A DNA stretch of 64,000 nt from an uncultured Candidatus Saccharibacteria bacterium. GTDB taxonomy: Bacteria; Patescibacteriota; Minisyncoccia; Phycocordibacterales; JACNGX01. A model generated the notes under the pieces. The model was not told the DNA's origin. It saw only the letters and a list, made by a program, of their open reading frames with translations, and ran no database searches. Where the stretch lies: positions 23,306 through 87,305 of the forward strand of contig CAZULS010000002.1 of assembly GCA_964621395.1 (NCBI GenBank). Direction: 5' to 3'. The position numbers and the translations under genes are program-made. Positions 24,940 to 53,548 of the stretch are shown here, piece by piece (positions within the stretch are counted from its first letter, which is position 1; each line of letters starts with the position of its first letter).

Positions 24940-27147
24940 ATGCCAGCCAAGAAAGAGACAACCAAAAAAACTGCCGAGAAAACTAAAAAATCAAATGGCT
25001 CGCCTAAACCGTCGAAAACGACGGTCGGCCAAGCCGGACATCATTACGATGCGTCGGATATTTCGGTGCTCGAGGGACTGGAGCCGGTGCGCAAGCGTCC
25101 GGGTATGTATATCGGATCCACGGGCGTGGACGGACTCCATCATTTGGTATGGGAGATTTTCGACAATGGTCGCGATGAGGCAATGGGCGGGTATGCGAAC
25201 CATGTGGAGGTGGTGATTCTGTCGGGTAATCGTATTCGCATCGCTGACAACGGTCGTGGTATTCCGGTGGATATGCACAAAAAGACAAAAGTCTCCGCAC
25301 TTGAAACGATCATGACAACACTCCATGCCGGAGGTAAGTTTGGTGGCGATGGTTATGCGAAGGCTACAGGAGGTCTTCACGGTGTCGGTGCCTCGGTGGT
25401 GAATGCACTTTCTTCGTACACGAAGGTCATGGTGCATCGCGATGGCGGTTTACACATGCAGGAATACAATACCGGAAAGGCGAAAGCAAAGGTAAAGAAG
25501 CTTGGCGCATCAAAAGCACATGGGACGATTGTTGTCTTCCAGCCCGATAAGGATGTCTTCTCCGAAACTGAATTTTCATGGAATAAAATTGTGCAACATA
25601 TTCTGCAACAGGCGTATTTGGTGAAGGGTTTGCGGGTGTCGGCATATGATGCTCGAGAGTACGCGGGGGATGTCGACTTGGAAGGCAAGGACATTCATTT
25701 TGTCTCCGAGCTGGAGCTTGCACTTCCTTCGCAATCATATTTCTTTGAAGGAGGATTGGTGTCGCTTGTGCGTCACAATAATGAATTCCAGAAACCGATT
25801 CACAAGAATATTTTCTTTGTGGAAAAAGAAACGGATGACGGTGTTTCGGTGGAAGTGGCATTTCAGTATGTGGATGATATTTCCGCGCGTCTCTCGGCAT
25901 TTGCCAATTCCACGCCGACGATTGAAGGTGGTATGCATGTGACCGGCTTTAAGACAGCGCTCACACGCGGGCTCAATTCCTATGCGCGAAAGAATAAGAT
26001 TCTCAAGGAGAGTGATGAGAATTTCACCGGTGATGATGTGCTCGAAGGAATCACGGCAGTGGTATCGGTGAAGCTCAAGGAGATTCAATTTGAAGGACAA
26101 ACCAAAGCAAAGCTCGGAAGCGTGGAGGCGCGCGGTGCTGTGGAGACGGTCTTTGGTGAAGCGTTGGGAGAGTTTCTTGAAGAACATCCCGATGACGGCA
26201 AGGCGATTGTGCAGAAGGTGATTTTGGCGCTCAAGGCGCGTAAGGCGGCTAAGGCAGCGAAAGATTCGGTGTTGCGCAAAGGTGCACTGGAAGGCATGAC
26301 ACTGCCAGGGAAATTGGCAGACTGCCAAACAAAAAGTGCCGCAGATTCCGAGCTCTTTATCGTGGAGGGAGACTCAGCGGGTGGTACGGCAAAATCGGGG
26401 CGTGATCGAAAGACACAGGCGATTTTGCCTTTGCGTGGTAAGATTTTGAATGTGGAGCGCGCGCGTTTGGACAAGATGCTTGCCTCCGAGCAAATCAAAA
26501 ATATTGTGGTGGCACTTGGGGCGGCAATTGGTGATGCGCTTGATATGGAAAAACTCCGTTATCACAAGATTATTATTGCAACCGACGCCGATGTCGATGG
26601 TTCCCACATCGACACACTTCTTCTCACACTCTTTTTCCGTTATTTCCGTCCGGTTATCGATGGGGGCTTTCTCTACATTGCCATGCCGCCTCTCTATAAG
26701 ATTAAAAAAGGAAAGGAGGTGTTTTATGCATTCACTGATGCTGATAAGGCGGAGATTTTGAAATCACTGGGCGTGGAAGATATGGAGGAGGCACCGGATT
26801 ATGGCCTAGACTCCTCTCTAGAAGAGTCGGCCAAAGAAGGCGAGGAGAGTGAGGAAGCTGAAGATGAAGGCCTAAACGCCGACAAGTCGGCATCGGCCAA
26901 GGAAGAGCCTGAAGCAAAGAAAAAAGCTGGCAAAGTACACATCCAGAGGTATAAGGGTCTCGGTGAAATGAATCAAGACGAGCTTTGGGAGACGACCATG
27001 GATCCGGAGAATCGACTTCTCAAACAAGTGACCATTGAAGACGCTGAAGAAGCAAATCGTGTCTTCGACACCCTCATGGGCACCGACGTATCCTCTCGCA
27101 AAACCTTCATCCAAAACAATGCAAAGTACGCAAATATCGATGCGTAA
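24940..27147 (+). CDS. gyrB: DNA gyrase subunit B
   Basis: GHKL ATPase region (LEGLEPVRKRPGMYIGSTG), Toprim region (EGDSAGG), and the C-terminal QRYKGLGEMN motif. An acidic ~45-aa insertion before QRYKGLGEM contains the in-frame palindromic element at 26870-26907. Confidence 0.93.
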   Translation: MPAKKETTKKTAEKTKKSNGSPKPSKTTVGQAGHHYDASDISVLEGLEPVRKRPGMYIGSTGVDGLHHLVWEIFDNGRDEAMGGYANHVEVVILSGNRIRIADNGRGIPVDMHKKTKVSALETIMTTLHAGGKFGGDGYAKATGGLHGVGASVVNALSSYTKVMVHRDGGLHMQEYNTGKAKAKVKKLGASKAHGTIVVFQPDKDVFSETEFSWNKIVQHILQQAYLVKGLRVSAYDAREYAGDVDLEGKDIHFVSELELALPSQSYFFEGGLVSLVRHNNEFQKPIHKNIFFVEKETDDGVSVEVAFQYVDDISARLSAFANSTPTIEGGMHVTGFKTALTRGLNSYARKNKILKESDENFTGDDVLEGITAVVSVKLKEIQFEGQTKAKLGSVEARGAVETVFGEALGEFLEEHPDDGKAIVQKVILALKARKAAKAAKDSVLRKGALEGMTLPGKLADCQTKSAADSELFIVEGDSAGGTAKSGRDRKTQAILPLRGKILNVERARLDKMLASEQIKNIVVALGAAIGDALDMEKLRYHKIIIATDADVDGSHIDTLLLTLFFRYFRPVIDGGFLYIAMPPLYKIKKGKEVFYAFTDADKAEILKSLGVEDMEEAPDYGLDSSLEESAKEGEESEEAEDEGLNADKSASAKEEPEAKKKAGKVHIQRYKGLGEMNQDELWETTMDPENRLLKQVTIEDAEEANRVFDTLMGTDVSSRKTFIQNNAKYANIDA

Positions 27148-44551: not shown

Positions 44552-46690
44552 CTAACTCCTATCCTCTATCACCTCCATATCAAGCGAACGGGTGGCGATG
44601 TCGGCGCGGACGAGACGCACGCGAACATGATCGCCCACGCGGTAGCGCTTTTTGGTGCGTTGTCCCACGAGTGCATACTGTGCTTGATCGTACTCATACA
44701 TGTCATCACTTAGTGTGCGCACGTGTACCAATCCATCGCCGAGTGTTTCTGCCTCTTGCACGAAGAAGCCGAAGTTGGTCACACCGGAGATGGTACCTTC
44801 AAATTCTTCTCCCACGCGGCCTTTGAGATATTCCACTTGCTTATATTTCACAGACGAACGCTCCGCTTCAGCGGCTTTTGCTTCGCGTTCGGAGGCGTAC
44901 CGCGTCATCACTTCGTAGCGCTCGAGCTCTTCTTCACTCGCACGATTTTCCGCAAGTTCGTGTGCAAGCAAACGGTGCACCATGAGATCGGGATATCGGC
45001 GAATAGGAGAGGTGAAGTGTGTGTAATGCTCAAAAGCAAGTCCGTAGTGTCCGATATTGTTTGTGGAATAGATTGCCTTTGCCATGGAGCGAATAGCCGC
45101 GGTGGTGATCACACGTTCTTCCTCAGAGCCTTCAATTGCTTTGAGAAGCGTGTTGATATCGCGAGAATCCGGACCTTCACCTTCTTTGCCAAGCGGCAGG
45201 TCATAGCCGAGTGTTTTCACAAATGTAGCAAGCTCGGCAATGCGGTCTTCGTTGGGGACATCATGCACGCGATACACAAAAGAATCAGCCACTGCCGGAT
45301 TGGCACGGTCGATATACTCAGCTACGCGCTTATTCGCCAGAAGCATCAAATCTTCCACCAATTTGTGAGCGGCGAAGCGTTCTTTTATTTTCACCCCTGT
45401 GGGCACACCACTTGCATCCAGCGTGAATTTTACTTCTTGTGTTTCAAAGGCGATGGCGCCTTTTTCAAACCGCTCTTTGCGGAGCGCTTCAGACACCGCG
45501 TTGAGCGAAGTGAGCGCTTCAGTGTGCGGACTCTCGGCACCTTCAAGCACTGCTTGTGCATCTTCATAGGTGAAGCGCTTGTCGGAATAGATCACACTGC
45601 GACCAAACCATTCCTTGGTAATATCCACAGCACCTCTCCGAAGTGCCGTGCGGTCAATTTCAAAGACGGCAGAGAAGGCGAGTTTGTCTTCTTCCGGATT
45701 CAAACTGCATACATCATTGGAAAGCACTTCCGGAAGCATCGGGATGGTGCGGTCTACCAGATACACTGATGTGGCACGTGTGGCAGCCTCGGCATCAATA
45801 GCGCCACCGGGTGTCACATAGTGTGAGACATCGGCAATGTGCACGCCCACTTCGATTGTCTTCTCATTTATCACACGGAAGGAAAGTGCGTCATCAAAAT
45901 CCTTCGCATCTTCCGGGTCGATGGTGCAGGTGAAGATATCGCGCATATCACGACGCTTTGCAATTTCTTCTTCCGAAATACTCCGATCAATGAGCGAAGC
46001 CTCGCGTTCTACCTCTTCGGGAAAATCAGGAGCAATACCGCGTTCGAAACACACAGCGCGCATTTCTGTTTCGTGATCGCCCGCCATACCGATACGCTCA
46101 AGCACCTGGCCTTTTGGGGTGGTGTTGGCGTCATTCCATGGATGCATGTTCACATACACTTTCTCGCCTTCGCGCACGGGCGTGGTGTCGTCTGTGATAC
46201 AAATCTTCACATACATGCGATTGTCATCAGGGACGACAGACGTGCCACATTCTTCTTTCACCACGGTGCCCACAAAGCGCATGCGTGTGCGGGTGATAAT
46301 CTCTTCCACACGGCCCTGTATTTCACCGCGCATGTTTTTGCCTGTGGTGTGCACGCGGACGATATCACCATGAAAAGCGGTGCCCAAATGTTCCGGCTCA
46401 ATGCGCACACGCTCGGTACTCTCAGACGAAAGGGGAATATATCCCACGCCTTTACCGGTGATGGAGATGATTCCTTCCAGCTCTTTTGTCTTTATCTTTC
46501 CGCGCTTCGGCTTGCCCGTCATTCCTTTGCCTGCGCCCGCTTTCGGGTGGGCAGGCTTGCCCTTAGCGCCTGAAAAACCCCGACGTGAATCGGATTTCGT
46601 GCCCGGGCGTTTCTTTGAAGCGCCTTTTCGAGGAGCCTTGCTCCCTTTAGATTTGAATTGTTTCATTGTGCGCAGTATAGCAGAAACCAC
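44552..46690 (-). CDS. rnr: Ribonuclease R / RNase II-family 3'-5' exoribonuclease
   Basis: Cold-shock/OB N-region, RNB domain (HIADVSHYV), a C-terminal S1 domain, and a Lys-rich N-terminal extension. Start is possibly at the internal Met ~46666. Confidence 0.9.
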   Translation of the reverse strand: MVSAILRTMKQFKSKGSKAPRKGASKKRPGTKSDSRRGFSGAKGKPAHPKAGAGKGMTGKPKRGKIKTKELEGIISITGKGVGYIPLSSESTERVRIEPEHLGTAFHGDIVRVHTTGKNMRGEIQGRVEEIITRTRMRFVGTVVKEECGTSVVPDDNRMYVKICITDDTTPVREGEKVYVNMHPWNDANTTPKGQVLERIGMAGDHETEMRAVCFERGIAPDFPEEVEREASLIDRSISEEEIAKRRDMRDIFTCTIDPEDAKDFDDALSFRVINEKTIEVGVHIADVSHYVTPGGAIDAEAATRATSVYLVDRTIPMLPEVLSNDVCSLNPEEDKLAFSAVFEIDRTALRRGAVDITKEWFGRSVIYSDKRFTYEDAQAVLEGAESPHTEALTSLNAVSEALRKERFEKGAIAFETQEVKFTLDASGVPTGVKIKERFAAHKLVEDLMLLANKRVAEYIDRANPAVADSFVYRVHDVPNEDRIAELATFVKTLGYDLPLGKEGEGPDSRDINTLLKAIEGSEEERVITTAAIRSMAKAIYSTNNIGHYGLAFEHYTHFTSPIRRYPDLMVHRLLAHELAENRASEEELERYEVMTRYASEREAKAAEAERSSVKYKQVEYLKGRVGEEFEGTISGVTNFGFFVQEAETLGDGLVHVRTLSDDMYEYDQAQYALVGQRTKKRYRVGDHVRVRLVRADIATRSLDMEVIEDRS

Positions 46691-46732
46691 TTTTGCTTGC
46701 CAGATGTGCGAGGGTGTGCTAGGATATGCCCC

Positions 46733-47269
46733 ATGTTAAAAATACGTTTACAACGCGTTGGCCGTAAACATGACCCGTCTTTCCGCGTGGTGGTGACGGA
46801 TTCTCGTTTCGCTGCTCAGAGTGGTAAGGCGCTTGAAGTACTCGGTTCATATAACCCGCGTTTCGATAACCCAACACTCAAAGAAGATCGTATCAAGGAA
46901 TGGATTGCCAAAGGTGCGCAGACATCCGGTACGGTACACAACATCCTCGTTGGCGCAGGTATTATTGAAGGGAAGAAGGTGAATGTGCTCCCGAAGAAGG
47001 CACCGATTAAGAAGGAGAATGAAGACCAAAACGCCGACGAGTCGGCATCGGTCAAGGAGGCAGAAGCGGAAGCTCCGGTGGCGGAAGAAGCATCGTCTGA
47101 GACACCAGCTGACCAAAATTCCTCTGAAGAGGAATTGGTCAAGGAAGAAGCTGCACCTGAAGCTCTAGCTGAAGAGAAGGCAGAAGAGACATCTCAAGAA
47201 GAAGCACCAACTGAAGCTGAAGCATCTGAAGATGCACCGGCTGAAGAGGAAGAGAAGAAAGAAGAGTAA
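46733..47269 (+). CDS. rpsP: 30S ribosomal protein S16 with long acidic C-terminal extension
   Basis: MLKIRLQRVGRKHDPSFRVVVTDSR S16 core. The ~90-aa Glu/Ala-rich tail contains the in-frame palindromic element at 47025-47062. Confidence 0.88.
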   Translation: MLKIRLQRVGRKHDPSFRVVVTDSRFAAQSGKALEVLGSYNPRFDNPTLKEDRIKEWIAKGAQTSGTVHNILVGAGIIEGKKVNVLPKKAPIKKENEDQNADESASVKEAEAEAPVAEEASSETPADQNSSEEELVKEEAAPEALAEEKAEETSQEEAPTEAEASEDAPAEEEEKKEE

Positions 47270-47472: not shown

Positions 47473-47748
47473 ATGCAGGTACAAATGATTACTGTGGTCT
47501 TTTTGATGTTTACCACAATTTTTGCTTGGGGTTTGAGCGCAAGCATGGAGGATGAGGGATTTAAATGGAAAGGTCTCTCGGGTATGTTTCTCATCATTGT
47601 TCTGTTTTGCGGAACAGTTGGGGTACTTCCTTTTGCGCTTCCCCTTGATCAAGTGGAGGCACTTGCGTCCCCGTTAGCTATTGTTGCCTTCTTGGCATAC
47701 GTAGTTCCTTTGTTTGCTCACCGAAGACAAAAACACATCGCATCCTGA
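47473..47748 (+). CDS. Small membrane protein, hypothetical (91 aa)
   Basis: Three hydrophobic helices. Confidence 0.35.
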   Translation: MQVQMITVVFLMFTTIFAWGLSASMEDEGFKWKGLSGMFLIIVLFCGTVGVLPFALPLDQVEALASPLAIVAFLAYVVPLFAHRRQKHIAS

Positions 47749-47843: not shown

Positions 47844-48131
47844 ATGGTAGACATACATCCTTTTCTCCTAGCCACAATTGTATTACTTCTTGTGGCAGGA
47901 ATGTTGTATTCGTTTGAAAGGACCAGACTCCTTTCTTTTGTTCCGAATATAATTGGCGTTTTCTTTTCTGGCCTTACGGGAGTACATATGTTTAGTGAGG
48001 GTCTCCATGATACGATGGCCCCTCTATTTTTCTTCTCCCCTGTGTTGGTGATAGCCGGGACAGAGTTTCTTCTTGCCTTTCTGTTCAAAAAAGCAAAGAA
48101 GGCATTGACACAAAAACCATGCACTGAGTAA
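47844..48131 (+). CDS. Small membrane protein, hypothetical (95 aa)
   Basis: Hydrophobic helices, similar in style to the preceding ORF. Confidence 0.35.
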   Translation: MVDIHPFLLATIVLLLVAGMLYSFERTRLLSFVPNIIGVFFSGLTGVHMFSEGLHDTMAPLFFFSPVLVIAGTEFLLAFLFKKAKKALTQKPCTE

Positions 48132-48219: not shown

Positions 48220-48594
48220 TTGTTGCATATATACCATATGGAAGCAGATCAAGCTTTTTTGGAGTTTGTTGTAAAGGCGATTGTTGACAATCCGGACGCT
48301 GTGAAGGTCGATCGTAAGACCGACGACATGGGCGTTCTTCTCACTCTCGATGTCGATCGTGAAGACATGGGTAAGGTAATTGGAAAGAGCGGAAACACCG
48401 CAAAGTCGATTCGTACGCTCCTCCGCGTTGTGGGCATGAAGAATGACGCACGCGTAAACCTTAAGATTGAAGAACCTGTTGGCGGTCTCCGCGACACCGG
48501 TAGCTACGGTGGGGGAGAAGCTCCGGCAGGAGACAGTGCTCCGTCTTCAGCAGCGGCAGATCTCGACGCTGCAATGGACGCACTCAAGGACTAA
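48220..48594 (+). CDS. KH-domain RNA-binding protein (YlqC/UPF0109-like), part of the rpsP-trmD operon
   Basis: KH GXXG loop in VIGKSGNTAKSIRTLL, and the conserved position after rpsP. Confidence 0.75.
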   Translation: MLHIYHMEADQAFLEFVVKAIVDNPDAVKVDRKTDDMGVLLTLDVDREDMGKVIGKSGNTAKSIRTLLRVVGMKNDARVNLKIEEPVGGLRDTGSYGGGEAPAGDSAPSSAAADLDAAMDALKD

Positions 48595-48650
48595 AGCGAC
48601 TAAAAAAGAAAAAAATCCTATAACATTGCCAAGGTAATGTTCGGATATAC

Positions 48651-48726
48651 AAAAAAGTGCCCAAAAGGGCACTTTTTTGCAGCACATAAGAACACACGCG
48701 CAAGCTAAAGCCTGCGCGTGTGTTCT
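48651..48726. terminator. Two consecutive terminator hairpins at the left boundary of the AT-rich island
   Basis: aaaaaagtgcccaaaagggcacttttttgc and gaacacacgcgcaag-ctaaag-cctgcgcgtgtgttc. Confidence 0.6.
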
Positions 48727-48881
48727 TTCAAGTACAAAGAATTATAATTATATAATTCCTGTAAATCACCGGCTTCTAAAGAGTACGGAAAGATGTTATA
48801 ATGTGAAAAATATTGTATTGAGCGTAATATGGAAGCAGACAAAGAGAATACTTTACATCAATACATTCTTAAACTAAGAAT

Positions 48882-49862
48882 ATGGCAAACAAAAATTCAG
48901 CACAAATGATAACGGGGAAATCTTTCGAGTATGCTCTTCTTGTTTCGTTTGAGGATAAGTTAAAGAGTAAAACCAACCTTGAAGTAATTAAGAACTCAGC
49001 TTTTTATGTTGCAAAAAGTTGTTTCGACAGTGTCTCTCCGAGCAAAAGAAGCGAGTATCTTTTATCAGCAAGTTTTGCTGTGAATTTTCTAATGGATATA
49101 GAACCTAGACTCTCAAACGATATGGGCAAAGATGATGTTCTTCAGCTTGAAATTTTATCTGATGATTATGGTAAGACAGGCGATGTTCGTGATGTGCTTG
49201 CTATCAGATTACTTCAGAAATGGGAAATTGGAGTTTCTGCAAAGAATAACCATAAAGCAGTTAAACATCCGCGACTATCTTCAGATATAGATTTTGGTGA
49301 TAAGTGGCTAGGCATTAAGGCGTCAGAAAAATATTTTGATGCAGTGGTGCCCATATTTGACCTTCTTAAGAAGATTAAAAAAGAGAGTGAGGGAAAGAAA
49401 AAATGGAATGAACTAAAAAATTATCACGCAGAGATATACGTACCAATCCTTCAGGCATTTGTAGAGGAGTTGAGAAGTCTTTATAAAAAGAATCCTAAAA
49501 AGGTAGCCTCAAATTTAGTTGCATATCTTGTTGGTAATAGGGATTTCTATAAGGTAATCAAGGGCAAGAACTCTGTAGAAATTCACGCTTATAATTTGAA
49601 CGGGACATTAAATTTACCTTTCAAGGAAATTCAGCCAAAATACAAGACCCCTAAAGTTCCTCTTCCTACGGAGATTACCGATATAGTCTTCAAAACCGAC
49701 AGTGATACAACAGTAATAGTTACTATGAACAATGACTGGACACTATCTTTTAGGATTCATAGTGCAAGTTCTAGAGTCGAACCATCTTTAAAGTTTGATA
49801 TAAATCTATTGAAGTCACCAAAGAAATTATTCAAGAATACACTGAATATCAGTCACGATTAA
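48882..49862 (+). CDS. Putative Type II restriction endonuclease (partner of the adjacent GGCC-type m5C methyltransferase)
   Basis: A 326-aa Lys-rich protein with no recognisable catalytic motif. Its stop is 3 nt before the MTase start, so the two are translationally coupled. Size and context match HaeIII-family REases. The assignment rests on association. Confidence 0.5.
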   Translation: MANKNSAQMITGKSFEYALLVSFEDKLKSKTNLEVIKNSAFYVAKSCFDSVSPSKRSEYLLSASFAVNFLMDIEPRLSNDMGKDDVLQLEILSDDYGKTGDVRDVLAIRLLQKWEIGVSAKNNHKAVKHPRLSSDIDFGDKWLGIKASEKYFDAVVPIFDLLKKIKKESEGKKKWNELKNYHAEIYVPILQAFVEELRSLYKKNPKKVASNLVAYLVGNRDFYKVIKGKNSVEIHAYNLNGTLNLPFKEIQPKYKTPKVPLPTEITDIVFKTDSDTTVIVTMNNDWTLSFRIHSASSRVEPSLKFDINLLKSPKKLFKNTLNISHD

Positions 49863-49864
49863 CT

Positions 49865-50842
49865 ATGAAATTAGTATCTTTGTTTACAGGCGCAGGAGGG
49901 CTTGATCTCGGATTTGAAAAGGTCGGTTTTCAGGTTATTTGGGCAAATGAATTCGATAAATCAATATGGAAGACTTTTGAACATAATTTTCCACATACAA
50001 AATTAGATAAGAAGAGCATCACAGAAGTTCAATCATGTGAAGTACCGGACGCAGACGGGTTTATTGGCGGACCTCCTTGTCAGAGCTGGAGTGAAGCAGG
50101 TGCCGGACGAGGGATAGACGATAAGCGTGGACAACTCTTTCATGATTATATTCGTCTTCTAAAGGATAAACAGCCGAAGTTTTTCCTTGCTGAAAATGTA
50201 TCCGGCATTCTTCATCCCAAACATTCGGAAGCTTTTTCAAATATTATCAAGGAATTTGAGAACGCAGGATATGTTGTGTCTCAAAAATTATTAAATGCGA
50301 ACGATTATGATGTTCCACAGGATAGATTACGTGTCATCATCATTGGATATCACAAGGATCTAGGAAAGAAGTTTGAATTTCCTGAGCCACAAATATATAA
50401 ACCTGTTCTCAGGGACGCTATTTATGACTTGCGCAGAGCGAAGCCGGCCAAAGATAGGAACAAGACAAATGGTGAGAGTTTGGAAATACCGAATCATGAA
50501 TATATGAACGGCGGTTTTTCGACGATTTACATGTCTAGAAATCGTGTGCGAGCTTGGGATGAGCCATCATTTACAATACAGGCAGGTGGTCGTCATGCGC
50601 CAATTCATCCACAGGCCCCGAAAATGAAATTCATCGAACAAAATAAAAGAATCTTTGTCCCTGGGTACGAAGATAAGTATCGTCGGCTGTCTGTTCGAGA
50701 GTGCGCGAGAATCCAGACGTTTCCGGATGATTTTATATTTAAATATAACGATGTTGCGAATGGATATAAAATGATCGGTAACGCTGTGCCAGTTAATTTT
50801 GCGAAGCATATTGCACGGAAGATAATGGATGATTTAGTATAG
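49865..50842 (+). CDS. DNA (cytosine-5)-methyltransferase, M.HaeIII-like
   Basis: Motif I LFTGAGGLDLGF, motif IV GGPPCQSWSEAG, motif VI FLAENV, motif VIII QDRLRVIIIG, motif X GNAVPVNF, in a 325-aa protein with a short target-recognition domain. The overall sequence strongly recalls the HaeIII/NgoPII GGCC group. Confidence 0.9.
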   Translation: MKLVSLFTGAGGLDLGFEKVGFQVIWANEFDKSIWKTFEHNFPHTKLDKKSITEVQSCEVPDADGFIGGPPCQSWSEAGAGRGIDDKRGQLFHDYIRLLKDKQPKFFLAENVSGILHPKHSEAFSNIIKEFENAGYVVSQKLLNANDYDVPQDRLRVIIIGYHKDLGKKFEFPEPQIYKPVLRDAIYDLRRAKPAKDRNKTNGESLEIPNHEYMNGGFSTIYMSRNRVRAWDEPSFTIQAGGRHAPIHPQAPKMKFIEQNKRIFVPGYEDKYRRLSVRECARIQTFPDDFIFKYNDVANGYKMIGNAVPVNFAKHIARKIMDDLV

Positions 50843-50846
50843 AGAT

Positions 50847-52784
50847 ATGAGAATTATAGAACGTATAGAAATCGCCTATTTTCGCTCTTTTCCTGAAAGT
50901 ACGATTATAAAAGATTGCAGGGACTTGAATGTCTTTTCTGGTGCGAATGATTCGGGAAAATCAAATATTCTTAGAGCATTAAATCTCTTTTTTTCGGAAA
51001 CGAAAACAGATTTTTATCAGATGATTGATTTTGAAAAAGATTTTTCTAAAGAGAGAGAGAATGTCGTTACGAAAGACACGGTGAAGGGTAAGAAATTTTT
51101 TCGTATCAGTATCTTGTTTAACAAAAAAGGTCTCGGCATATCCTCAACTGTTCTACCGGATTCGTTTTGGGTTGAGAAGGTTTGGGATAAAGAAGGTTCA
51201 ATGACTTCTAGAAAAACGAAGAATGGTAAACGACAACTTATATATGATGATGGTGCTAGCAAAAGGCAGACAAAGGTAGAGACTGCCACGACGATGTTTT
51301 TGAAAAAAATAGATTTTGCCTATGTCCCAGCGATAAGGGATAAATCTTTTTTTGACTATTTGAAGAAGGAATACCAAGATTCTCTTGGGCGCAAAATTTC
51401 TCGTCTGACTAACATTGCTACAGACGATAAGAGGACCATTGAAGAGTGGCTGAATATTTTAACAGTTGGTGACTTAACTGAGCAACTCGATAAAAAGATA
51501 GATCAGGAGTCAAAGGCTCTTATGAAAAAATTTAAAGAGTATACTCATGAGATAAAAGAGTCCGCCTTTTCTATCCCTAATTTAAAACTTGATTTTTCAC
51601 AAGTCCTTGAGATTGCAACTGAGCAGAATATCTACCTTCCTTTTCGTGGTGATGGGGTTCAGGCGAAATTTATTCCACAGATAATGACGGAGATTACGAA
51701 GAATAAAAAGACCCCAATTGTCATATGGGGCTTTGAAGAACCAGAAAATTCACTGGAATATAGAAATGCCCAACAGTTTGCCGAATTACTTCTCAGTGAG
51801 AGCTTAAAGGAAAAACAAGTGTTCGTTACTAGTCATGCATTTAATTTTATTGCCCTACAAGGTGAAAACGTATCTCAGTATAGAGTCTATAAAGGTGAGA
51901 AAAATGAAACGAATATTACCTCTTTGAACGTAGAACAAAGTTCTATTTTTGAAAAAAGCGATAGAGACCTTTTGTCAGAGGAGTTGGGTGTTTTTGAGTT
52001 AAACAATGAACTGAGGTCAGTCTATAGCCTGAAAATTAATGAGATAAATCTCTTTAAGGAAAAAAAGTCAGAATACGAAAGACTGTTATCTTCCAGACCA
52101 GACAAGATATTTATTTGTGAAGACTCAAAGCCAAACATTGTTTCTTTGTGGGAGAGGTTTTTGGTGGACCTTGATATTCAGGACGTCAAAGTTATGTCAT
52201 CCGAAGGTTCAACACAAAATATTGTCGAATTAGGAATTCTTCATCAGAAAAAGCTTGATCCAGAATATAATCCATCTGTATTTAGGCAAATTGATAGAGA
52301 CGGACTAACTGATGGTCAGATGAAGGCTCTTGAAGAAAAACTCTTTAGGCAATTTAAGAGAGATATAAAGAAATATGAGTATTCTTTTCTTCCTGTTAAC
52401 GAGATTGAGAATTTTGCGGTTATTCAGAAAGAAGATATTTTCAATGGAGATTTTTGGAAAGTAAATCAAAAAAAGATAGAGGATAAATTTATGAGTACAG
52501 TAGAGGGAAGTTCGAAAAAGTTCTCAAAACTATTTGACACAGAAACTGAGAAAAGAGAATGGTTATTATTTCGGGATAAGGGTGGCGGCTTCTCTTCTGT
52601 TTATAAAGGGATGAGAGACTTCGCACAAAAAGACGGGAATAGATTTTTTCCTGGTAAAGATATTTGCAAGGAGATAGATAATTTCTCAGGAATTACTTTT
52701 TTAACTCACCTTGCTCCAGAGACATATTCGGAGGATTTGAAAGAGTATCTTAGTAGTATTAAAAATTTTTTTGAAGAATCATAG
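50847..52784 (+). CDS. ABC-type ATPase (AAA_15/AAA_21-like) fused to a C-terminal Toprim/DUF4435-like nuclease domain; OLD-family / fused PARIS (AriAB)-like / Gabija GajA-like defence protein
   Basis: N-terminal IERIEIAYFRSF and Walker A GANDSGKSN (nt ~50941-50967), Walker B/D-loop IVIWGFEEPENSLE, H-loop VFVTSHA. The C-terminal domain has a conserved Glu in IFICEDSKPN (nt ~52110), DxD in RQIDRDGLTD (nt ~52290), and FLPVNEIENFAV. The start is 4 nt after the MTase stop. Confidence 0.7.
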   Translation: MRIIERIEIAYFRSFPESTIIKDCRDLNVFSGANDSGKSNILRALNLFFSETKTDFYQMIDFEKDFSKERENVVTKDTVKGKKFFRISILFNKKGLGISSTVLPDSFWVEKVWDKEGSMTSRKTKNGKRQLIYDDGASKRQTKVETATTMFLKKIDFAYVPAIRDKSFFDYLKKEYQDSLGRKISRLTNIATDDKRTIEEWLNILTVGDLTEQLDKKIDQESKALMKKFKEYTHEIKESAFSIPNLKLDFSQVLEIATEQNIYLPFRGDGVQAKFIPQIMTEITKNKKTPIVIWGFEEPENSLEYRNAQQFAELLLSESLKEKQVFVTSHAFNFIALQGENVSQYRVYKGEKNETNITSLNVEQSSIFEKSDRDLLSEELGVFELNNELRSVYSLKINEINLFKEKKSEYERLLSSRPDKIFICEDSKPNIVSLWERFLVDLDIQDVKVMSSEGSTQNIVELGILHQKKLDPEYNPSVFRQIDRDGLTDGQMKALEEKLFRQFKRDIKKYEYSFLPVNEIENFAVIQKEDIFNGDFWKVNQKKIEDKFMSTVEGSSKKFSKLFDTETEKREWLLFRDKGGGFSSVYKGMRDFAQKDGNRFFPGKDICKEIDNFSGITFLTHLAPETYSEDLKEYLSSIKNFFEES

Positions 52785-52879
52785 CCAATAATTTATCTCC
52801 TTTCCGATATTTGCATTCTCAGGAAGACCAGATCTTAGAGAGTGCGAATATGAGGAGAGTAGATTCGTAATTCGTAACT

Positions 52880-53548
52880 ATGCATTTTCATGTGATTACA
52901 ATTTTTCCTGAGATGGTGCGGGGGTATGTTGACTCTGCGCTTCTTTTGCGTGCGCAGAAGGAGAAAAAGATTTCCGTGTCGTGTTATGATCCGCGAGATT
53001 TTACGAAAGATAAATGGCGGAAGATTGATGACCGTCCGTATGGGGGCGGGCCTGGTATGGTGATGGAAGCGGAGCCTATTTTGAAGGCGGTGAAGAAGGC
53101 GCGAGGGAAAAAGCTTGTATCATCGAAGACCGGCCAAGGGGAAAAGGTGAAGACGATTATTGTGTCGCCGCGCGGTGAGCAATTTTCAAATGACATGGCG
53201 GAGAAATGGGCGAAGCGCTACGACCATCTCGTGATTATTTCGGGGCGGTATGAGGGGATTGACGCGCGTGTGAAAAAGGCGCTTCGGGCTGAGGAGATTT
53301 CTATGGGGCCGTATGTTCTTACCGGCGGGGAAGTGCCGGCAATGGCGATTATTGATGCGACGGCGCGACGGATTCCGGGAGTTCTTGGAAATGAAGAATC
53401 GCCGGAGGAATACCGAGTAGCTTCGGGGGAGACATACACCCGTCCGGAGGTATTTACCTATGAAGGAAAACAATATCGCGTGCCGAAGGTGCTTCTTTCG
53501 GGGGATCATGGTGCGATAGAGGAGTGGAGACGGAAAAGCTCCAAATAA
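52880..53548 (+). CDS. trmD: tRNA (guanine37-N1)-methyltransferase
   Basis: MHFHVITIFPEM, DDRPYGGGPGMVM, and the SPOUT-knot region ISGRYEGIDARV. Confidence 0.92.
   Translation: MHFHVITIFPEMVRGYVDSALLLRAQKEKKISVSCYDPRDFTKDKWRKIDDRPYGGGPGMVMEAEPILKAVKKARGKKLVSSKTGQGEKVKTIIVSPRGEQFSNDMAEKWAKRYDHLVIISGRYEGIDARVKKALRAEEISMGPYVLTGGEVPAMAIIDATARRIPGVLGNEESPEEYRVASGETYTRPEVFTYEGKQYRVPKVLLSGDHGAIEEWRRKSSK

Follow-up and report, generated by a model that had tools for sequence, protein, structure and literature searches.

Among the restriction-modification (R-M) systems that recognise GGCC, one of the closest described relatives of the locus discussed here is the HaeIII system of Haemophilus aegyptius, a two-gene Type IIP system with the cleavage pattern GG^CC. 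NgoPII and BsuRI share this recognition sequence, and the three are treated as convergent (PMC4081073). We analyzed a stretch of 64,000 nucleotides from an uncultured Candidatus Saccharibacteria bacterium (contig CAZULS010000002.1 of assembly GCA_964621395.1, positions 23,306 to 87,305), the whole of which we call the window and in which all positions below are numbered. On its + strand it carries a gene for a restriction endonuclease (REase; hereafter R) at 48882-49862, encoding 326 aa or, in the NCBI call from Met9, 318 aa, followed by a gene for a C5-cytosine methyltransferase (MTase; hereafter M) at 49865-50842, encoding 325 aa. Like HaeIII, this is a two-gene Type IIP arrangement, its REase falls in the same Pfam family and its MTase is 59% identical to M.HaeIII. 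Unlike HaeIII, it resides in a host that is Patescibacteria-like to judge by the names of homologues, its target-recognition domain (TRD) is only 49% identical to that of M.HaeIII, and it sits on a composite island together with a gene resembling the OLD family. NgoPII and BsuRI have the same predicted recognition sequence as the window pair, but their REase families are unrelated to R, which has no Pfam match to them. We propose, with a probability of roughly 85%, that the locus consists of an intact HaeIII-family Type IIP R-M pair with a separate OLD-like defence gene on an imported island of 4.2 kb.

R belongs to the HaeIII family of REases. Its product matches Pfam RE_HaeIII (PF09556) over positions 1-296 of the 298 in the model (E=3.1e-97, 325.8 bits with a cutoff of 25), and it matches the PADLOC Type II REase model PDLC03430 (REase_II) with E=1e-100. 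A preliminary description of this DNA, made from the letters and open reading frames (ORFs) alone, had found the 326-aa ORF unrecognisable and without any identifiable motif, a view that these full-length matches overturn. A search of 5.8 billion proteins yielded 4168 homologues, and an exhaustive search of representatives of clusters at 50% identity yielded 849 homologous clusters. The homologues with 79-82% identity come from metagenome-assembled genomes (MAGs) of Parcubacteria/Patescibacteria, and several of them already bear the name "HaeIII family restriction endonuclease." Near-identical R-M cassettes are thus already annotated in public MAGs and the pair belongs to a known family, so that the alternative of a novel partner for the MTase, which the preliminary description had also entertained, falls to the Pfam match and the annotated homologues. 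NCBIfam contains no model that matches R, and the PHROGs collection gave nothing meaningful for it. In an alignment of 72 family members with 32-58% identity, no variation occurs at residues G12, E74, D101, D104, K128, W142, G218, W286, and R291, while S119, K121, and N123 reach a conservation of at least 90%; every one of these invariant and conserved residues is present in the window protein.

A sequence search of the PDB with R returned only noise (an IL-18 receptor, E=0.07), and therefore there is no solved structure in the family. We turned to an AlphaFold (AF2) model based on the same alignment, which has a pLDDT (predicted local distance difference test) value of 96.9 and a predicted template-modelling (pTM) score of 0.92. 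Its sole fold neighbour in the PDB is HinP1I (2FKC, 1YNM; probability 0.92, E=4.5e-3), with 235-243 aligned columns covering a target of 241-247 residues. HinP1I and MspI are monomeric PD-(D/E)xK REases with a variant motif of the form Asp...S/Q/N-x-K, and the D...QxK motif of HinP1I resembles the GDVRD...S119-A-K121 of R. Based on the model, we tentatively describe the core of R as of the PD-(D/E)xK type with the variant motif D101/D104...S119-x-K121 and with E74 placed on a helix. In this tentative assignment, GDVRD (101-104) is followed after about 15 residues by S119-A-K121, which would lie on the third core strand (114-122). Such a variant motif in the family would explain why no PD-(D/E)xK motif was seen in R by the earlier reader.

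The evidence for M is similarly extensive. Its product, the METHYLTRANSFERASE, has a full-length match to Pfam DNA_methylase (E=5e-99) and further matches to the TIGR00675 dcm model (E=5e-84) and crystallised M.HaeIII (PDB 1DCT, 3UBT), to which residues 1-321 align with residues 1-321 at E=1e-124. The two proteins are collinear over these 321 aa, with 59% identity and two single-residue gaps, and the identical positions amount to 102 of 166 in the N-terminal catalytic part, 48 of 97 in the TRD, and 39 of 63 in the C-terminal part. Within the TRD, which corresponds to residues 166-262 of M.HaeIII, there is a single one-residue gap and no rearrangement. The preliminary description was right that all canonical motifs of C5-methylcytosine (m5C) MTases are present: GGPPCQSWS, LAENV, QDRxR, RECARIQ-FPD, and GNAVPV follow one another in the canonical order, and the catalytic Cys71 and Glu109 of M.HaeIII are conserved. 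Furthermore, I221, R225, R227, and R243 are identical in M and M.HaeIII, and these we take to contact the DNA in the structure of M.HaeIII bound to its target (Reinisch et al. 1995). Because M is collinear with M.HaeIII, and because its catalytic residues and these presumed contacts are identical, GGCC is the best-supported prediction for its target; a TRD suited to some other specificity, which had been raised as a possible outcome, is not what the alignment shows. The preliminary description had likened the MTase to a HaeIII/NgoPII group; for the REase, the family is that of HaeIII and not that of NgoPII, since a Pfam scan of R at E<=1 gave no RE_NgoPII and only RE_HaeIII and a spurious Rotamase_2.

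The window is also poor in GGCC. The count of sites that the preliminary description had suggested gives 72 sites where a maximal-order Markov model predicts 161 (observed-to-expected ratio, O/E, 0.45; z=-8.8) and base composition predicts 193; no other among the 16 four-base palindromes is as under-represented as GGCC. Three other contigs with a HaeIII cassette have GGCC O/E values of 0.47-0.64, and four distant relatives of the host locus (TrmD identity 52-61%) have values of 1.02, 1.13, 1.27, and, in one case, 0.67. Together with the RE_HaeIII match and the collinear M.HaeIII-like TRD, this depletion supports the earlier suggestion that the ORF upstream of the MTase encodes a candidate GGCC REase. 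GATC is similarly depleted in the window (163 sites vs. 276 expected, O/E 0.59, z=-9.0) and is low in related contigs as well (O/E 0.52-0.83); in the vicinity of the R-M pair, we saw no gene of a GATC-specific R-M system. Since the avoidance of GATC roughly equals that of GGCC, a lack of sites does not by itself specifically prove GGCC recognition. Four of the GGCC sites fall within 93 bp (26803-26895), in the part of a gyrB-like gene (24940-27147) that encodes an acidic low-complexity insert, and this cluster is probably incidental.

The pair lies on a low-G+C island of 4.2 kb (48681-52878, no strand assigned), delimited by G+C content and by comparison with a metagenome contig, L095, that is the closest relative of the locus. 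The G+C contents of R, M, and a third ORF (ORF3) are 0.35, 0.40, and 0.35, as against about 0.48 for the window and the flanks. L095 carries the genes for RNase R, rpsP, the KH-domain protein, and TrmD in the same order and with 84-93% identity (TrmD 87%, KH 93%, RNase R 84%). Nucleotide homology between the window and L095, as detected by blastn, stops at 48680 and restarts at 52879, and thus 48681-52878 was either inserted or took the place of other sequence, in a slot between the KH-gene terminator and trmD that is variable. That slot spans only 338 bp in L095 (6662-6999), where it holds a 53-aa ORF (MKKHVRKIVKNGRESYYINIPKEIARELRW...) that looks AbrB/SpoVT-like by eye. In the window, the slot is bounded upstream by the gene for the KH-domain protein (48220-48594) and downstream by trmD (52880-53548), the next gene after ORF3; the RNase R and rpsP genes lie upstream of the KH-trmD interval. 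A hairpin at 48650-48679 (+ strand), with a perfect 13-bp stem and A and T runs on either side, is the probable terminator of the KH gene and the last stretch common to the window and the island-free L095. A second hairpin at 48688-48727 (+ strand), whose 19-bp stem is 95% complementary and whose loop has 2 nt, marks the left edge of the island. We found no direct or inverted repeats flanking the island, and no integrase signature or tRNA gene that would explain its mobility; tRNA genes come no nearer than 30 kb and Rfam models matched tRNAs only.

Comparison with sister cassettes delimits the R-M unit more closely. Cassettes from Patescibacteria/Parcubacteria (e.g., GCA_016217555.1, GCA_030583705.1) resemble that of the window in an REase with 79-82% identity, in the order R then M, and in a spacing of 2-4 nt between the genes. 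In the window, the TAA stop of R (49860-49862) and the ATG of M at 49865 leave a gap of 2 nt without overlap. The ORF of 48882-49862 and the MTase ORF that follows it are thus present where the preliminary description had put them, and its 3-nt gap and overlap with the MTase start need correcting. Three sister contigs (L005, L007, and L009) have the same order and a gap of 2-4 nt, and their DNA identity to the window, 75-76%, is confined to R and M (about 48865-50835). They are found in unrelated neighbourhoods, and the cassette is mobile among Patescibacteria-type genomes. The sisters differ from the window in what surrounds the pair. A controller gene encoding an HTH_3 protein of 68-69 aa lies 4 nt upstream of R in L005 (5790-5996) and L009 (5787-5996), a DUF7695 gene (1881-2072) occupies the position 4 nt upstream of R in L007, and none of the three has an OLD-like gene downstream. 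The window cassette either lost such an upstream controller or DUF7695 gene or never had one. A 66-aa ORF with a TTG start (48677-48877) was considered as a controller and rejected, as it and the hairpins overlap and as it shows no resemblance to controller (C) proteins. At 48794-48802 (+ strand), some 80 nt before R begins, TGtTATAAT reads by eye like an extended -10 element and may be the promoter of the island. Downstream of the cassette, L009 encodes a second m5C MTase and a protein with HATPase_c_3/Hypoth_Ymh matches.

Several observations weigh against the reading of an intact, GGCC-specific pair. The prediction of specificity is drawn from the MTase, the Pfam family, and site depletion. 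HinP1I is a weak structural match, with a TM score of 0.32-0.40, 11% sequence identity, and some 80 aa more in R than in HinP1I, and for this reason the assignment of catalytic residues in R is tentative. L095, which is free of the island between KH and trmD, is itself GGCC-poor (3 sites vs. 12 expected in 7.9 kb); the depletion therefore either predates this insertion or reflects another copy elsewhere, and it belongs to the lineage rather than resulting from the insertion seen here. Upstream of R there is no gene for a C protein, the best tblastn match of the L005 and L009 C proteins to the whole window having E=1.7. Finally, a consensus promoter scan found no -35 match near R, and TGtTATAAT was therefore not reported by the scan. 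One could conclude from the last two points, and from the metagenomic derivation of the genome, that the R-M genes are present but inactive, the MTase being an orphan beside an REase in decay or the whole cassette being silent. We hold this to be highly improbable: both ORFs are full length with all family-invariant residues and m5C motifs intact, independent assemblies of two runs gave the same sequence, and the comparison with the sister cassettes shows 75-76% identity in DNA but about 80% in protein, with zero frameshifts. A pair of HaeIII-family enzymes whose specificity has shifted away from GGCC, to a degenerate or similar site for instance, would fit a TRD that has only 49% identity to M.HaeIII and a depletion of GATC about equal to that of GGCC. 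We nevertheless regard such drift as very unlikely, given that the TRD contains no insertion or deletion longer than one residue, that the residues presumed to contact the GGCC bases are all kept, and that GGCC stands first among the 16 palindromes for depletion.

The preliminary description had treated the locus as a two-gene unit. This does not hold, for ORF3 (50847-52784, + strand, 645 aa) begins 4 nt past the M stop on the same strand as R and M. ORF3 encodes an ABC ATPase of the OLD lineage, in which the ATPase part extends from residue 1 to about 340 and is joined by a coiled-coil linker to a C-terminal domain of some 230 aa (about 415-645). The N-terminal part matches Pfam AAA_15 (E=1.7e-17) as well as AAA_21 and SMC_N, and PADLOC gives weak matches to AriA, AbiLi, GajA, HEC-01A, and Old that are restricted to this part. 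The ATPase motifs (Walker A, signature, Walker B, and H-loop), namely, GxxxSGKSN, the RGDG signature (G268, D269, G270), FEEPE, and TxH330, vary little or not at all in the family. The AlphaFold model has a mean pLDDT of 77.7, with residues 420-645 mostly at about 90 or above, and its best PDB neighbours in a Foldseek search (E 3e-14 to 5e-12) are GajA (8x5i/8sm3), the retron-Eco8 effector (9lpa), and a Thermus OLD protein (6p74). ORF3 thus shares with the OLD family, GajA, the Eco8 effector, and HEC-04 an N-terminal ABC ATPase with a coiled-coil insert. Gabija (GajA+GajB) and PARIS (AriA+AriB) were considered as identities for ORF3 and rejected, because the island holds no partner of the UvrD-like/helicase or DUF4435 type and the next gene is trmD.

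The C-terminal domain sets ORF3 apart from the OLD-family nucleases, as it matches no Toprim, DUF4435, or OLD profile. A scan of 26 family members gave no match of this domain to these or any other Pfam families, the domain alone had no PADLOC match, and alignments of the whole protein and of the C-terminus had no PDB profile match covering it. Neither hhalign comparison with three groups of alternative C-termini, in which genuine OLD-like TOPRIM gave a probability of less than 7%, nor the BFVD viral fold library produced a domain-level match. The invariant residues of the domain are E425, D426, D483, D485, E519, E521, N522, G603, and K604. In the model, the domain has a predicted (beta-alpha)x4 core in which E425/D426 follow the first strand (420-424), D483xD485 the third (477-482), and E519xE521N522 the fourth (510-514). 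This predicted placement agrees with the Toprim pattern of a Glu after strand 1 and a DxD after strand 3, although profile searches found no match. Two homologues, P0126 with a C-terminus of the window type and P0155 with an OLD-like TOPRIM (PF20469), share 75% identity across an N-terminal stretch of 487 residues that spans the ATPase and coiled coil, and their similarity ends at the junction "KIFICEDS"/"KVLFTEGPTD," which is the first motif of the effector domain. From the sequences, this break looks like a swap of effector domains on a conserved sensor.

The genomic setting of ORF3 and its relatives bears on whether R, M, and ORF3 work together as a single system, in which the OLD-like ATPase would be a back-up effector that fires when a phage inhibits R-M, comparable to PrrC with EcoprrI or to PARIS upon the appearance of anti-restriction proteins. 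In the island itself, the 4-nt spacing, common strand, and equally low G+C content of ORF3 are in keeping with this idea, and no strong terminator or promoter lies between M and ORF3. Furthermore, the closest full-length homologues with known neighbourhoods (54% and 45-46% identical) are located between hsdM and hsdS of Type I R-M operons, where the stop and start codons of adjoining genes overlap. Among 83 neighbour proteins at 23 loci of the ORF3 family, nine match Methylase_S (HsdS) and five match HsdM_N and N6_Mtase (HsdM), and the exact pattern hsdM-X-hsdS is seen at five loci (L015, L011, L022, L026, and L028). Work on "guilt-by-embedding" has validated embedded ABC-ATPase-TOPRIM fusions such as HEC-04 as defences against phage, and PrrC is its classic example of an R-M-embedded defence (10.1101/2024.01.29.577857). 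Like the embedded HEC-04 type, the ORF3 family is a single-gene module often found inside other defence operons, whereas Class 1 OLD genes have been described as non-adjacent to other defence genes (PMC10568477). Despite this, we consider an integrated three-gene system doubtful. ORF3 is outside the conserved R-M cassette: in the three sister contigs, DNA homology ends at the M stop and what lies downstream is other genes or none. Additionally, three relatives of ORF3 stand alone (L012, L013, and L014), and co-location in a defence island needs no functional coupling. We also think it unlikely, though it would be the most far-reaching interpretation of the family, that ORF3 represents an undescribed OLD-lineage branch that has kept the ABC-ATPase "sensor," exchanged Toprim for a sequence-orphan effector with the motifs E-D, DxD, ExEN, and GK, and become specialised to R-M operons, in Type I systems between hsdM and hsdS and here behind a Type II HaeIII pair, as a guard that would fire when restriction or modification is subverted. 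If ORF3 does guard R-M function, the logic of PrrC and PARIS would extend to a new effector.

We accordingly favor the reading of an intact HaeIII-family pair that shares its island with a separate OLD-like defence gene, and on this basis we propose the following model. On host DNA, M would place a methyl group on C5 of the inner cytosine in GGCC, and R would cut unmethylated GGCC in incoming DNA. We infer the position of this cut, as well as the activity of the pair, and the weak match to the HinP1I fold hints that cleavage could proceed by a monomeric two-step mechanism. R and M are probably co-transcribed, with R first, from a promoter borne by the island. The OLD-like protein, encoded in the same operon, would work independently as an ATP-dependent effector and is probably a nuclease, and the low-G+C segment of 4.2 kb has replaced the spacer between KH and trmD. 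The R-M pair implies neither a new nuclease family nor an unusual R-M architecture, and the remaining interest of the locus lies in a composite island that was inserted into the core operon of a reduced genome, as well as in an OLD-lineage protein associated with R-M. The island exemplifies a small R-M cassette that moves among reduced Patescibacteria genomes and that has landed inside a conserved ribosomal/tRNA-modification operon (rpsP-KH-trmD), with a matching avoidance of GGCC in the host, which is useful for predicting methylation and for choosing a cloning strategy in such uncultured organisms. ORF3 is the more interesting lead, as its family is repeatedly embedded in R-M loci and its C-terminal domain, which has no assigned family, appears to be swapped against a genuine OLD-type Toprim in a near-identical sister protein.

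The operon around the island has further features of its own. Between rpsP and the KH gene, two small ORFs at 47473-47748 and 47844-48131 encode hydrophobic products of 91 and 95 aa, which have no tblastn counterpart in L095, where rpsP adjoins KH. The gene for ribosomal protein S16 (46658-47269) encodes an acidic, Glu/Ala-rich C-terminal extension of about 100 aa; this tail is not alignable with L095, whereas the first 102 residues of the protein are 92% identical there.

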